From the NCBI GenBank assembly GCA_041288095.1, contig JBGGMJ010000058.1, forward strand, positions 1 through 49,041: a DNA stretch of 49,041 nucleotides, read 5' to 3'. Below are positions 27,192 through 49,041 of the stretch, piece by piece. The first letter of the stretch is position 1; every line of letters starts with the position of its first letter. Origin of the DNA: Myxococcota bacterium (lineage in GTDB: Bacteria; Myxococcota; XYA12-FULL-58-9; JALHOP01). The notes under the pieces are model-generated. The model searched no databases and was not told where the DNA came from. It saw only the letters and a list, made by a program, of their open reading frames with translations. Both the position numbers and the translations under genes were made by a program.

Positions 27192-29024
<1,833 letters not shown>

Positions 29025-29080
29025 GACGCAGAGTGTAATCGCACATCTAGGCGCTGACAAGATAGAGACGGGCCGCGCTC

Positions 29081-29192
29081 GAGAAAGTTCCTGGTCGATT
29101 CTCGGGGTTACCTGTGGTCGGCGCCGACGACCTCTGCAACCGACGTAACCCCTTGTTTTTCCATGATCCGAGAAAGTTCCTGGGCGATTCTC
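29081..29192 (+). repeat. Direct repeat pair GAGAAAGTTCCTGG(T/G)CGATTCTC (29081-29103, 29170-29192) enclosing inverted repeat GGGGTTAC/GTAACCCC (29104-29111, 29145-29152)
   Basis: 22/23 identical copies read directly; same core as the repeats flanking the transposase. Confidence 0.85.
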
Positions 29193-30160
29193 CGGGCGAG
29201 GCCGATGCCGCCGTAGACGAGCCCGGTGTAGAGCTGGACCAGCGAGGCGCCGGCGCGGAGCTTGGCGTAGGCCTGCTCGCCGGTGGAGACGCCACCGACG
29301 CCGATGAGGGGCAAGCGGCCTTCCGTGAGCTCGTAGACCCGTTTCAAGACCGCCGTGGAGCGCGTGAACAAGGGCTCGCCCGATAGGCCGCCCTGCTCTT
29401 CGCGGGTCCTGCTCTTCAAACCGTCGCGGGACAGCGTCGTGTTGCCGCAGATGAGGCCGTCGATGCGGTGCTCGAGCACGACCTCGCAGATGTCCCGGAG
29501 CTCATCGTCCACGAGGTCGGGCGCGATCTTCACGAGCAAGGGCTTGGTGTCGGCAGCCAGGCGCGTCGCCGCGACCAGCGAGGTCAGCGCCTCGCGGCTC
29601 TGCAAGGCCCGCAACCCGGGCGTATTGGGGGACGAGATGTTGATGACCAGGTAGTCGGCGAGGTCGCGGCCGCGCTCGATGCCGGCGACGTAGTCCGCGA
29701 TAGCGTCTGGTTGATCCTTGTTCTTGCCGAGGTTCAAGCCAACGATGCCGGGCATGCGGCTCGGCGAGGCGAGACGCTCCTCGAGACGCCGCGCCACGCG
29801 CTCGATACCGTGGTTGTTGAAGCCCAAGCGATTGATGACACCTCGGTCCTCGAGGGCGCGGAACATGCGGGGCTTGGGATTGCCGGATTGCGCCTTGGGC
29901 GTGACGCTACCGACCTCGACGAAGCCGAAGCCCTGTTGCAGCACCGGGTCGATGACCTCGGCGTTCTTGTCGAAGCCGGCCGCGAGCCCGATGGGGTTCA
30001 CGAAGGTGAGGCCCCATACCTGGGTTACGAGCCGCTCATCGCCGAAGGGCTCGGGGATCGGCACCAGATGGTTCTTGAGGGCCGTGATGGCGAGGCCGTG
30101 CGCCCGCTCGGAGTCGAGCTGGCGCAAGAGCGGCCACACCAAGCGATAGTAGTCGAGCAC
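29108..30160 (-). CDS. pyrD: Quinone-dependent dihydroorotate dehydrogenase (class 2)
   Basis: NPIGLAAGFDKN, GNPKPRMFR, INRLGFNN, NISSPNTPGLR, LVKIAPD, GGLSG, VQLYT. Confidence 0.96.
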   Translation of the reverse strand: MLDYYRLVWPLLRQLDSERAHGLAITALKNHLVPIPEPFGDERLVTQVWGLTFVNPIGLAAGFDKNAEVIDPVLQQGFGFVEVGSVTPKAQSGNPKPRMFRALEDRGVINRLGFNNHGIERVARRLEERLASPSRMPGIVGLNLGKNKDQPDAIADYVAGIERGRDLADYLVINISSPNTPGLRALQSREALTSLVAATRLAADTKPLLVKIAPDLVDDELRDICEVVLEHRIDGLICGNTTLSRDGLKSRTREEQGGLSGEPLFTRSTAVLKRVYELTEGRLPLIGVGGVSTGEQAYAKLRAGASLVQLYTGLVYGGIGLARRIAQELSRIMEKQGVTSVAEVVGADHR

Positions 30161-30216
30161 GGCGGTGGGTACGTCGCACGACACCGCGCCCGCGACAAGA
30201 CCGAGGAGCCTAGGGC

Positions 30217-30552
30217 CTAACGTCGTTGCGGGCCTTGCGCGCGCACGCCCTGGGGGCGGCGGCGGCGGCCCTCGTTCCATTCGGGCAAGGTGATGCGGCC
30301 GTCACGCGGCTTGGTGTCGAAGTGGCCGATAAAACCATCGGCGACCATGTCCTGGAACATGTTGATGTCGCGGGTATCGAGCACCATGTGCTTGATGTCG
30401 GCGAGCTCGAGATAGGGCCGCACGTCGACGCCACGCGCCCGCGAGACATTGGCCCGCAACGCGGCGAAGTCGTTGTCCGAATTGCCGCTGTAGCGGCGCA
30501 CCGTGGCGTTCATGGCGTTCTCGATGCAGGCTCGGTTGAAGTTGCAGGCCAT
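30217..30552 (-). CDS. Small orphan protein with EF-hand-like loop and basic tail
   Basis: GGGGAG RBS; FDTKPRDGRITLPEW resembles an EF-hand loop; RRRRP tail. Confidence 0.55.
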   Translation of the reverse strand: MACNFNRACIENAMNATVRRYSGNSDNDFAALRANVSRARGVDVRPYLELADIKHMVLDTRDINMFQDMVADGFIGHFDTKPRDGRITLPEWNEGRRRRPQGVRAQGPQRR

Positions 30553-45888: not shown

Positions 45889-47213
45889 CACCATCGACCA
45901 GGAACCTTCTTGCGAGCACTCGCGCAAATGGACCCTCGTTGTTGTCTGTCGGGTGCTCGAGGCGCGGTGCGTGAGGCACAGGGGGGCCGTTGTTGGGTTT
46001 TCGGCCGGCAATGCGCAACCTGGAGCAGGTTCTAGGCAGATCTCGAGCGTTCTTCTACGCTCCGGCCGGTAACCCGTCGGGTGGTGTCGTCCATCTGCCT
46101 GGCGCGAACGAACCGATGGGAAAAACCGGGGCACGACACCTAGCGTCCTCTATAGCGGCACGGCGGAACCGCAGTTGGAAGCTCCAATAGGCTTCCAGAT
46201 AGCACTGCGTAGCTGGGGCATTCGGCGACGCCCAACATACGATTCGCCGGCGGCGCTGGATCCAAGGAACCTCCGGCAATGCGGTTCGATGGTCCAGCGG
46301 CACTCGGCGAATCCGCCGCGCGCCCATCGGCGAGCGTCCTGCCCTCGTGGCGTTGCCCTCAGCAACGATCTCCTCGACGAGTCGCCGAATTTCGCTACGC
46401 CGCGCTTCCGTGCCCAAGTGCTGCCACGCGGGGATCGGGGCCAGCTCGACCGAATAGTCGGTCAGGTGATCACGCCTGGAAATCACCTTGGGATGCCGCC
46501 GGCGCGACTGACTATCGACGGCGCGGGAATATGTCGTGGCGTTCAACCAGGTGCCCCGGAGTGGCTCACCGTAGAGGAGAGAACGTGCACAATGCACGCC
46601 GGGCCACTCTTCTGGGCGACCGACGAGTCCCTCTTTGACACCTTGGCTGAGGATGTACTTGAGGCACGCCACCTGACTCTCAGGTGTCGGAAGAGCAGTG
46701 GCCCGATACTCGTGCCACATCGTTCCGCTCCAGCCGACGGAAGAGTTCCGCGCCCACCGGCGCGAGATCTCTCGCTTGATGAATCCGATGAAGGCGGGAA
46801 CCTCCTCAGGGGGGCCTTGGAGCATGAAGTGAGCATGGTTGGAGAGAAACGCCATAGCGTACAGTCGCACCTTGGCGTATCGCCGCAGGGCTCGCCCGAC
46901 GACACCCAGGATGATGGCGTTGAGCTCGGTACACGGTCGCAGCAGGTGTCGGCCTTGGAAGACACGCGAAATCACATGAATGGGAACATCACTCGTGATG
47001 AACCGCGCGTGATGCGTCCCCGCATGCACCGGCACATGGCCGTCGAGCAAAGGAGCACCGGGCGCAAACACCATCCTCGCCCTCGGTGCACCCAGCATGC
47101 CGGCCCGAGGCTTCATCTGGGCGGCGAACTGCGGCCCTTCCCGCTGTCACGGTCGCTGCTGTCGCAACTTGCGACGCGAAAAGCGGACGGAGAATGTTCC
47201 TGGTCGATTGGTG
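45889..47213. mobile_element. HUH/Y1 transposase unit bounded by inverted copies of an 18-bp repeat
   Basis: ATCGACCAGGAACCTTCT (45893-45910) versus AGAATGTTCCTGGTCGAT (47191-47208), 17/18 reverse-complement match; flanking CACCA/TGGTG extends it; no TSD seen. Confidence 0.7.
46055..47116 (-). CDS. REP-associated tyrosine transposase-like (Y1_Tnp/RAYT) HUH endonuclease
   Basis: IHVISR, HUH motif LSNHAHF, catalytic Tyr in KYILSQGVKEGLV..PEEWPG; true start probably downstream of 47116. Confidence 0.8.
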   Translation of the reverse strand: MKPRAGMLGAPRARMVFAPGAPLLDGHVPVHAGTHHARFITSDVPIHVISRVFQGRHLLRPCTELNAIILGVVGRALRRYAKVRLYAMAFLSNHAHFMLQGPPEEVPAFIGFIKREISRRWARNSSVGWSGTMWHEYRATALPTPESQVACLKYILSQGVKEGLVGRPEEWPGVHCARSLLYGEPLRGTWLNATTYSRAVDSQSRRRHPKVISRRDHLTDYSVELAPIPAWQHLGTEARRSEIRRLVEEIVAEGNATRAGRSPMGARRIRRVPLDHRTALPEVPWIQRRRRIVCWASPNAPATQCYLEAYWSFQLRFRRAAIEDARCRAPVFPIGSFAPGRWTTPPDGLPAGA

Positions 47214-49041
47214 AGGGTTAGGGCCAGCACGAGCGCAATCACAATACCGCTGGCGCTCCTCGAGGAGGTGCAGCCGCCGTCGCCGGTGACCGGCGGCTTG
47301 CCGGCTTGCTCGGGGGTGCCGGTGCCGGTGAGCGCAAGGGTTAGGGTTGGATTGGTGGGGTCGTCGGAGGTGATGGTTAGGGTGTCGGCGTACTGCGTGA
47401 ATGCGGGCGGGATGAACACGATGCCGATCGTGCAGCTCGCGTTGCCGGTGAGGACGAAGCTGGTCGCGCCGCAGGGCGCGTCGCCGTAGTGGACGTCGAT
47501 CGTGAACGGAGCGCCGGAGGCGAGCGAGACGCTCGTGACCGTCAGCAGGCCGGCTCCCTCGTTGGTAACCATCACCTCGCCCGAGGCGGTGCCGTTCGCT
47601 TCGATATCGCCGAAGGCCCGGCTCGCGGGGTCGATCGCGATCCGACCCTGGGCCTCCAGCGCGCCGAGGTCCACCGCGGAGCCCACGATGCGCCGCGCGC
47701 CCGCGAAGTCGGTCGCCGGTAGACTCGGAGCCGCGTCGTCGCCGGCGTCGAGCGCCGGACTGCCGACACGCAGGCTGAAGTCACCACTCGCCGCGTTCGC
47801 GAACAGTGGATCGCCCTGCACCGCGTTGGTCAGTGTGACCAGCGCCGCGCTCGCAAGGTCGCAGTTGAGCGTCACGCTGTCGTTGGTGAAACAACCATCG
47901 GAAGCGAGGTTGTGCGAGACGGTGAACGTCGGTGTCGTGCCCGCGTTGGCGCGAACGACGAAGTCGTTGCCGGTTCCGGGAGGCGCTACGTTATCGAAGA
48001 AGATGTTGTTCACGAGATCGGTGTGCGCCGCCGAGCTGCCGCCCGGTACGCCGTGATAGACGAACACGCCGCCGACCGCCTCGACGGAGGAATTGCCCAC
48101 GAACGTGTTGTTGATGATGTCGACATCGACTGGTGAATTCGCGTCACTGAGCAGCGCCAAGGCGCCCGCCGGGTACAAGAAATCGGCCGTCGTGCTCTGA
48201 TTGTCCGCGATGACGTTGTTGGCGATGAGCACTGGGCCCGAAGCAAAGAAGATATTGAGGTTGACGCCGCCGACCTGCAGACCGGCGTTTGCGGTCACGA
48301 GATTGTCGAGCACGGTGATGGCGGAGCCGCCGCTCACATTCAACAAGTTGACCCCACCGGCCCACCCCGCGCCGCCAACGTTCCCCTGCACGTGGTTACC
48401 CTGGAACACGATGGCGCCGTTGAAGTTCGACCAAATATCGATCCCATTCGCCTTGGCGTTCGCGGCCCCCGTGTTCCCAGAGACGACGCAGTCCTTGACG
48501 ATGATGGTGCCGCTGTTGCCCGTCAGGTGCGCCCCGCCCGCGCGCTTGCCGTCGAGGTTGTCCTTGAGCTCGACGCGCTCGATGGTGATCGTGCCGGCAT
48601 CGTGGCCGGCAAAGAGCCCGGCGCTGAAGCTGTCCGCGTCCGAAGGCACCGTGCCGTTCTGGATGGTCAAATCCCGAACCACGATGTCAGCATCGCCGCT
48701 CACGCTGAGCGCGAGGACGGAGCGCGTCGACGCTCCATCGAGGATGGTCACCCCCATGCCGGCTCCGACAATCGACAAAGAGTTGCCGTCGATGCTCCCG
48801 CCGTTGAACGGGTAGCCCGGTGGGTCGTTGCTCATGATCGAATAGGTACCGGCACCGAGATTGATGATGTCGCTCTCGTCGTTGTGCGACGCGACCGCGA
48901 GTGCCTCGGTCAAGCTACACAGCGTCTTCGGCTCGGCGACGTCATTGGCGCACGCGGCCTCACCGCCGCCACCCGAGGTCGGTGTCACTTGGATGGTCGC
49001 GGCGAAAGTCGTTTTGGCGGAGACGACGAGAACGACAGCGA
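47147..49041 (-). CDS. Large surface protein: right-handed beta-helix + choice-of-anchor Q/Ig-like domain + MYXO-CTERM-like anchor; 5'-truncated by window edge
   Basis: Frame stays open to the window end (..AVVLVVSAKTTFA/ATIQV); NNTFVGN repeats; DPLF..GDFSL..GSPALDAG..VDLGALE; GGC + TM tail. Confidence 0.8.
   Translation of the reverse strand, partial: AVVLVVSAKTTFAATIQVTPTSGGGGEAACANDVAEPKTLCSLTEALAVASHNDESDIINLGAGTYSIMSNDPPGYPFNGGSIDGNSLSIVGAGMGVTILDGASTRSVLALSVSGDADIVVRDLTIQNGTVPSDADSFSAGLFAGHDAGTITIERVELKDNLDGKRAGGAHLTGNSGTIIVKDCVVSGNTGAANAKANGIDIWSNFNGAIVFQGNHVQGNVGGAGWAGGVNLLNVSGGSAITVLDNLVTANAGLQVGGVNLNIFFASGPVLIANNVIADNQSTTADFLYPAGALALLSDANSPVDVDIINNTFVGNSSVEAVGGVFVYHGVPGGSSAAHTDLVNNIFFDNVAPPGTGNDFVVRANAGTTPTFTVSHNLASDGCFTNDSVTLNCDLASAALVTLTNAVQGDPLFANAASGDFSLRVGSPALDAGDDAAPSLPATDFAGARRIVGSAVDLGALEAQGRIAIDPASRAFGDIEANGTASGEVMVTNEGAGLLTVTSVSLASGAPFTIDVHYGDAPCGATSFVLTGNASCTIGIVFIPPAFTQYADTLTITSDDPTNPTLTLALTGTGTPEQAGKPPVTGDGGCTSSRSASGIVIALVLALTLTNRPGTFSVRFSRRKLRQQRP

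Follow-up and report, generated by a model that had tools for sequence, protein, structure and literature searches.

The 3' end of pyrD, the gene for dihydroorotate dehydrogenase, raises the question of how a dispersed DNA repeat can come to stand within the codons of an essential enzyme and leave the protein intact. The locus lies in the window, the whole 49,041-nt stretch of DNA analysed here (contig JBGGMJ010000058.1 of the Myxococcota assembly GCA_041288095.1), where one copy of a short repeat covers nine pyrD codons and a second copy follows the stop codon. Both copies belong to F1, a genus-restricted family of repeats that resemble repetitive extragenic palindromic (REP) sequences and are linked to transposase genes of the REP-associated tyrosine transposase (RAYT) type. 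We consider it rather probable that the in-gene stretch is the fossil of a length-neutral overwriting of nine pyrD codons by this RAYT-linked repeat.

A direct repeat within and after pyrD

The first-pass annotation of the window described two 23-bp direct repeats 89 bp apart, one in pyrD and one past its stop. This description was confirmed, and the repeat was extended to 28 nt. The features concerned are as follows.

29080..29107, + strand: post-stop REP-like copy (family F1), extragenic, adjoining the TAA stop codon of pyrD
29169..29196, + strand: in-gene REP-like stretch, nine pyrD codons, which are read on the minus strand
29108..30280, - strand: pyrD, dihydroorotate dehydrogenase (Pfam DHO_dh, E 2.5e-87)

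The 23-mer GAGAAAGTTCCTGGTCGATTCTC is found exactly at 29081-29103 and with one mismatch at 29170-29192. No further copy was found in the window at up to three mismatches, and shuffled sequence gave 0 matches in 100 shuffles. The extended copies, 29080-29107 and 29169-29196, are spaced by 89 nt and identical at 26 of 28 positions (93%). By reading, the repeat contains a dyad of self-complementary arms, GAGAA-N13-TTCTC. The in-gene codons, CGG AGA ATC GCC CAG GAA CTT TCT CGG, encode RRIAQELSR and agree with the REP consensus at 25 of 27 positions.

The post-stop copy agrees with the family consensus CCRAGAARGTTCCTGGTCGATTCTYGGG, and a scan of the window's genome (hereafter G000; 5.85 Mb, 212 contigs, 66% GC) found its 23-mer to be exactly that of two other copies, C168:498 and C168:43199. 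It is an ordinary extragenic F1 member in the usual REP position. The copy lies upstream of the promoter of the next gene, with 20 nt between its end and the -35 element. The 61 nt separating the two copies are the conserved pyrD tail plus the stop codon, and the copies are direct rather than inverted, so that the REPIN-type unit suggested earlier does not describe this locus. The DHO_dh match spans PyrD residues 84-373 and profile positions 2-291 of 291, and the tail ...GADHR* is common to distant homologues, to which it was aligned without gaps.

It should be mentioned that the pyrD open reading frame (ORF) as annotated opens with MERGPPPPPPGRARARP... and that the codons of 30160-30280 are very atypical (windows 10-21). 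The true start is probably further downstream than 30280, because homology begins near residue 40.

The nine codons in other pyrD genes

The PyrD genes compared (n=95) come from G000, three congeners (G001-G003), 14 relatives and 77 metagenome loci. The order is represented by only 22 genomes, all of which are covered by the 16-mer counts given below, and it supplied no closer relative by which to date the event. None of the 95 genes has a gap in the nine codons, and the in-gene copy is therefore not an insertion. The repeat leaves PyrD intact, as stated in the first pass. The homologous codons match the 27-nt repeat consensus as follows.

G000: 25/27
G002: 22/27
G001: 22/27
G003: 17/27
91 outgroups: 6-17/27

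The outgroup peptide consensus at this place is [R/K]-I-[K/N]-[R/K/Q]-[E/G]-L. The usual outgroup codons, for example ATC AAC CAG GAC CTC, are already like the repeat core, and the pyrD site was thus pre-adapted. Translated in the phase of PyrD, the post-stop copy yields P-R-I-D-Q-E-L-S-R. The in-gene copy differs from the consensus at two positions, which fall in the Pro and Asp codons and are both non-synonymous. The Pro codon is now Arg, and the Asp codon is now Ala (G000, G002 and G003) or Asn (G001); a single base change leads from GAC to either GCC or AAC. In the G000 stretch every one of the nine third positions agrees with the repeat by reading, and pyrD has a G where the other listed family copies have a T (26 of 26).

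In the DNA alignment, each of the four species of the genus has the in-gene stretch, with scattered synonymous decay, and a repeat stands directly after the pyrD stop in each of them. G002 also keeps the 89-nt spacing of the two copies. Divergence at 4-fold sites is 39% between G000 and G002 and 48% between G000 and G003; pairs with G001 were left out, having only 12-20 sites each owing to an alignment problem. Because it is present in all four species despite this 39-48% divergence, the stretch is ancestral to the genus and hence old. Of the earlier proposal that the repeat has colonised or rewritten the gene end, rewriting or local gene conversion is consistent with these data, whereas recent colonisation is not, since all four species carry the stretch.

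A local mis-assembly, which had also been considered, does not account for the locus. A 480-nt Logan contig from run X1 spans 28958-29437 with 0 differences and no joints. This run may be the source sample and is hence not independent, and cover in runs X2-X4 is partial, again with no joints. Independent support comes from the assemblies of the three other species, which have the same architecture.

Codon use in the pyrD tail

Over the last 29 codons of pyrD the GC content at third codon positions (GC3) is 0.655, compared with 0.889 in the remaining 361, in agreement with the first-pass remark that the tail codons are unlike the rest of the gene. Among the synonymous codons for the same amino acid in 2,177 long G000 ORFs, AGA has a share of 1.1%, CTT of 3.4% and TCT of 2.0%. 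The codon-frequency product of the nine in-gene codons is 10^-8.05 (8.8e-9) against a pyrD median of 10^-3.24, and is the lowest in the gene once the doubtful N-terminal extension is set aside. The rare codons past the repeat are partly common to all four species. By our own count, A/T-ending codons in the tail are retained at 12 of 22 positions, only slightly above the background range of 0.32-0.50. As a sign of purifying selection at the nucleotide level this was rejected, there being no clear excess.

A genus-restricted repeat family

In G000, the 23-mer has 13 matches at up to two mismatches. The numbers of matches to the 16-mer AGAARGTTCCTGGTCG at up to one mismatch are listed below.

G000: 28
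G001: 18
G002: 34
G003: 19
Other genomes of the order and phylum (n=27): 0 or 1 each

With the 16-mer reversed as a control, the four genus genomes have 0 matches. F1 is a genus-restricted REP-like family. When 27 copies were lined up, the unit was found to be about 27 nt long, CCRAGAARGTTCCTGGTCGATTCTYGG, with flanks that are not conserved. An AGAATG variant of the 16-mer occurs twice per congener, and an AGAAAG minority variant accounts for 8 of the 28 matches in G000; both pyrD copies have the latter.

At 9 of about 22 G000 loci a copy lies no more than 30 nt after a stop codon, in either orientation, as counted by reading stop-to-stop ORFs without a gene caller. From our own reading of the match lists, at least two copies lie within 100 nt of each other at only 3 of about 22 G000 loci, and doublets at gene 3' ends are thus not the rule. 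The pyrD pair and all clusters seen (C168:499/553, four copies on C171, and clusters in G001-G003) are direct repeats, in tandem, with spacings of 21-95 nt in G000 and the congeners. At G000:C171:4181-4302, four head-to-tail copies with a 33-nt period lie 28-127 nt past a stop codon, and comparable direct arrays with periods of 21-54 nt are seen in the congeners.

The F1 hairpin has 7-bp arms and a 13-nt loop and is worth -3.5 to -4.3 kcal/mol as DNA (z about -1). By reading, neither a GTAG nor a CGTC tag is present in the 27-nt consensus. At two G000-specific copies, C187:42005 and C187:71542, the insertion boundaries were unreadable, since post-stop regions do not align between species.

RAYT-type transposase genes and their flanking repeats

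The first-pass annotation had linked the repeat to a transposase, and this link is upheld, in that related inverted copies flank a RAYT-like ORF in the window.

46055..47116, - strand: divergent RAYT-type HUH/Y1 transposase gene, 353 aa, assigned by profiles and motifs
45889..45911, - strand: 3' flank repeat copy of the RAYT gene, in the opposite orientation to its 5' counterpart
47190..47212, + strand: 5' flank repeat copy of the RAYT gene, variant AGAATGTTCCTGGTCGAT

The ORF matches NCBIfam REP_Tyr_transpos (NF047646) with an E of 8.8e-11 and 41.9 bits, where the cut-off is 80, and Pfam Y1_Tnp with an E of 0.02 and a score of 15.5 against a threshold of 23. When it is aligned with ISDra2 TnpA (2xm3), its NHAH and KYILSQ motifs fall on the HUH motif and the catalytic Tyr, and H94, H96 and Y154 are invariant in 13 RAYT-like homologues. 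The 13-member profile matches ISDra2 TnpA 2xm3 with an E of 3e-5 and E. coli TnpA-REP (4er8) with an E of 4.2e-4. Judged by these profile and motif matches, the protein appears to be a divergent RAYT relative with a C-terminal extension of about 180 aa.

A second full-length RAYT-like gene of G000, on C168, is 66% identical to the gene of the window (C58), and inverted repeat copies flank both. Each congener has 2-3 full-length RAYT-like genes, and by coordinates there are repeat matches on both sides of at least three of the congener genes. RAYT homologues of other genera have related flank cores, ATCGACCAGGAAC in G019 and GATCGAGGAGGAAC in G025. The core hence predates the genus and did not originate in pyrD. 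The RAYT-flank and G019 copies have the core and lack the left arm. Presumably the RAYTs mobilise F1.

The 5' flank copy overlaps the last approximately 20 codons of an ORF for a choice-of-anchor Q/D protein (47147-48988, - strand, 613 aa), whose tail ...LTLTNRPGTFSVRFSRRKLRQQRP* is read through the repeat. The C-terminus of this protein may also be repeat-derived.

Further in-gene copies and a subfamily switch

Other in-gene copies stand in two genes, the first of which came from a scan for repeats with coding signal on both sides.

G000:C187:92575-94248: GH20 beta-N-acetylhexosaminidase gene with in-gene copy (Pfam E 2.5e-80)
G000:C153:21326-23539: lipoprotein gene with in-gene copy in opposite orientation

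The GH20 codons, CCC CAA GAA GCG ACC AGG AAC CTT CTC GGG, encode PQEATRNLLG, with one mismatch to the 27-nt consensus. The copy is kept in G001 and G002, with GTG replacing GCG. It lies 81 codons before the stop, is ungapped against PDB 7cbn and 6q63, and takes in the conserved LG of the family.

The lipoprotein copy lies near the 5' end of its gene (ORF of 736 aa, no stops), and the orthologues are all equal in length. The G000 codons, TCG AGA AAG TTC CTG GTC ACT TCG (SRKFLVTS), are F1-like, and G002 equals G000 across the 18-nt repeat core. The G001 codons are TCG CGG GCA CTC CCG GTC ACG TCG, and those of G003 are TCA AGA AAG CAC CCG GTG CAT ACC (SRKHPVHT). The G003 18-mer is exactly (18/18) that of another subfamily, F2. 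Between the F1-like and F2 forms there are 7 changes in 18 nt, every one of them towards F2. Changes that all go one way and keep the length cannot have come from independent point mutations, and they point to replacement of the resident repeat in place, as a block and base for base.

F2, AGAAASCACCCGGTGCAT, has 83 matches in G003 at up to two mismatches and 0 in G000-G002; loci in G003 include L004:756-860, L036:2690-2760 and L056. By reading it is a clear palindrome, GAAAGCACC-C-GGTGCTTTC. It flanks its own RAYT paralogue (G003:C2:36241-37272), and three tandem F2 copies occupy the post-stop pyrD site of G003. A further site, at about 2040-2057 of G002:C39 (L069) and orthologous to G000:C161:9130, reads AGAAGGTTCCTGGTGCAT, of which the left part is F1-like and the right part F2-like, though G002 is without the F2 family.

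The spacer and the downstream gene

The spacer does hold the 8-bp inverted repeat and the palindrome noted in the first pass, namely GGGGTTAC/GTAACCCC at 29104-29111 and 29145-29152 and a GC palindrome at 29114-29131. They give no detectable signal. The RNA fold of 136 nt has a z of -1.32, with 22 of 200 shuffles folding equally well. The spacer hairpin is not in the consensus fold of the four congeners (covariation term +1.25), and Rfam has zero matches at E up to 1 across 28800-29500. On its z value and its absence from the four-species fold, the hairpin was rejected as a functional element.

The neighbouring features downstream of pyrD are the following.

29032..29060, - strand: sigma-70-like promoter TTGTCA-17-TACACT, predicted to drive the acyl-CoA dehydrogenase gene
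27192..29024, - strand: acyl-CoA dehydrogenase gene (Pfam Acyl-CoA_dh_C, _1, _M and _N)

The promoter search found 1 site compared with 0.0 expected in shuffles, and the promoter block is nearly invariant in the four species. The start of the acyl-CoA dehydrogenase gene was placed at a conserved ATG at 29024; since this ATG is only 7 nt past the -10 element, the mRNA is probably leaderless. At 28940-29105, a frame in the PyrD phase is open through the post-stop repeat into the acyl-CoA dehydrogenase start, and loss of 89 bp between the repeats would yield an in-frame fusion of the two genes. As the spacer is longer by one base in G002, this potential for fusion is probably a coincidence.

Origin of the in-gene stretch

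From the sequence comparisons we infer both the direction, from repeat into gene, and the mechanism at pyrD. The C-terminal codons for R-I-N/K-Q/R-E-L (...ATC AAC CAG GAA CT...) would have resembled the repeat core beforehand. The repeat would then have replaced nine codons base for base, reading (P)RIDQELSR in the PyrD frame. Selection at the protein level would subsequently have altered only the two unsuitable codons, Pro to Arg and Asp to Ala or Asn. Synonymous positions would have retained the A/T-ending rare codons of the repeat, slowly decaying in each species since. The post-stop spot, for its part, has held repeats since before the split of the four known species. The route that we favour is cleavage by a RAYT at shared arms followed by strand transfer of the donor repeat strand. 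HUH enzymes cut single strands and rejoin them to any suitable 3'-OH, and E. coli TnpA-REP cleaves on either side of a REP (PMC8266576). Were the enzyme to cut in the arms that F1 and F2 have in common and to ligate a donor core, just this length-neutral swap would result. Conversion of the RecA type was considered and is unlikely, since flanking identity amounts to only about 6 nt.

Several points weigh against overwriting. The event itself is not directly observed, and no outgroup in or just outside the genus was found to be without the stretch, which keeps direction and mechanism inferential; among the metagenome matches listed there is no PyrD above 60% identity. Low GC3 runs about 12 codons past the repeat (GAA AAA CAA GGG GTT ... 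GTT GCA), and a 28-nt replacement leaves these extra codons unaccounted for. The F1 hairpin is weak, so that its recognition as a classical REP hairpin is not evident, and the RAYT assignment lies under the curated NCBIfam cut-off (41.9 vs 80 bits). Perfect 12-mer cores without arms occur in other genes (KFLVD codons, C37:24303); a core match alone is therefore no trigger for overwriting. It is noted, too, that the assemblies of G000, G003 and several relatives are fragmented.

Among the other explanations, our second choice, for pyrD alone, is template switching, in which the nascent strand, being misaligned, took up the sequence of the REP 89 bp away and brought it into pyrD independently of RecA and RAYT. 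That both pyrD copies are of the minority AGAAAG variant (8/28 in G000) would fit, as would the spacing kept in G002 and the match of outgroup PyrD to the repeat, up to 16-17 of 27 positions, which could seed misalignment. We nevertheless regard it as rather unlikely, since the GH20 copy has no neighbouring copy in a genome scan at 5 mismatches and the F2 switch in the lipoprotein gene has no adjacent F2 among the listed matches, the nearest being about 545 nt and 2.1 kb away on C2. Return to the original template would also need flank homology that is absent here, and an 89-bp deletion or duplication would be expected instead. Unlikely as well is a cis-element, whereby both copies are under selection as sites for a regulator, a nucleoid protein or a RAYT, or as RNA elements, and control of the pyrD mRNA 3' end or of the acyl-CoA dehydrogenase promoter preserves the rare codons. 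It could draw on the arms dyad, on the conserved promoter just downstream of the post-stop copy, and on the keeping of CTT and TCT in 3 of 4 species each and of AAA in 4 of 4. The retention of A/T-ending tail codons (12/22 vs 0.32-0.50) also leans this way, but the excess is small and not significant by our own estimate. Moreover, the promoter is nearly invariant, yet the post-stop copy of G001 has diverged and that of G003 is of the other subfamily. There is no Rfam match and no covariation, and the other in-gene copies sit at unrelated positions, 81 codons before the stop in the GH20 gene and near the 5' end, in opposite orientation, in the lipoprotein gene.

It is very improbable that pyrD was itself the progenitor, with F1 arms arising there by chance and a RAYT spreading that version. 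The lack of the left arm in the RAYT-flank and G019 copies does imply that the arms are new in the genus. However, three in-gene copies in different genes, frames and orientations cannot all be progenitors, the pyrD G stands against T in 26 of 26 other listed copies, and the differences from the consensus look like amino-acid repairs. Least credible is a coincidence of coding constraint or an assembly artefact, to which we give hardly any weight. R-I-x-Q/R-E-L is an old PyrD motif whose usual codons are like the repeat core; against this, outgroups reach at most 17/27 compared with 25/27 in G000, and the rare-codon product is 8.8e-9. As to an artefact, the assemblies of four species agree, and a contig bridges the region without joints.

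Taken beyond pyrD, the overwriting proposal leads to a broader and more doubtful idea, which we offer tentatively: RAYTs might carry out a length-neutral 'cassette exchange', cutting the shared arms of REP-like sites and ligating in the active core. If cassette exchange occurs, successive subfamilies would overwrite resident copies in place, also inside essential genes, and REP families would be in-situ protein editors, as in the change from FLVT to HPVH in the lipoprotein and in PyrD R-I-x-Q-E-L. It would also supply the long-sought mechanism of REP homogenisation.

For the question of how REPs spread and how copies stay alike, the genus gives natural before/after pairs: the lipoprotein codons are of the F1 kind in two species, and a third species has F2 there. 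The same switch from F1 to F2 is seen at the post-stop pyrD site, as replacement in place predicts and simple insertion does not. By the overwriting proposal, an essential enzyme can have a conserved segment rewritten by a repeat family with its length unchanged. In gene finding and in analyses of selection, a stretch of this kind would be mistaken for foreign DNA or for odd codon usage.

Comparison with known systems

REP/RAYT systems, or REPtrons, were reportedly described by Nunvar in 2010 and by Bertels & Rainey in 2011. As in those systems, the repeats found here are short, dispersed and mostly placed just after stop codons, and an HUH/Y1 gene is flanked by inverted copies. Vertical inheritance, the persistence of repeats at orthologous sites and the pairing of subfamilies with RAYT paralogues are also shared. 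Unlike REPs, F1 is only weakly palindromic and bears neither a GTAG nor a CGTC tag, and its clusters are direct and tandem in place of the inverted doublets of REPINs. Each genome has 2-3 full-length RAYT-like genes, instead of the one gene of the domesticated pattern, and a low number of repeat copies, about 20-35.

In the survey of Di Nocera et al. 2013 (PMC3733652), REPs usually sit right after stop codons, and REP classes with a GTAG or CGTC end tag are described. TIRYT, tyrosine transposase genes flanked by non-REP inverted repeats, are described in the same survey (PMC3733652). F1 resembles TIRYT and the TIR families as presented there (PMC3733652), which are moderately abundant repeats in dimers or clusters. 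It differs from TIRYT as described there in that the dispersed copies have gained a second self-complementary arm, absent from the copies that flank the transposase genes.

Rickettsia palindromic elements (RPE) are in-frame insertions that add residues to genes. Intragenic REPs are also described as insertions, with 20-30 aa added by dimers or grouped repeats (PMC3733652). Like both, the repeats studied here are read in frame inside conserved genes without destroying them. A literature search that did not extend to the supplementary lists of intragenic REPs (PMC3733652 Additional file 3) found neither a subfamily switch at orthologous codons nor a length-neutral overprint of an essential gene. 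Unlike in the intragenic REPs and RPE so described, no residue is added here, and the repeat overlays conserved residues, PyrD and GH20 both being ungapped.

Gene conversion among REPs is said to have been proposed by Higgins et al. in 1988. Our proposal agrees with that idea in that REP copies would be kept alike by non-reciprocal transfer of sequence. It goes beyond the 1988 idea in its evidence, which is a subfamily switch at orthologous codons inside an ORF.

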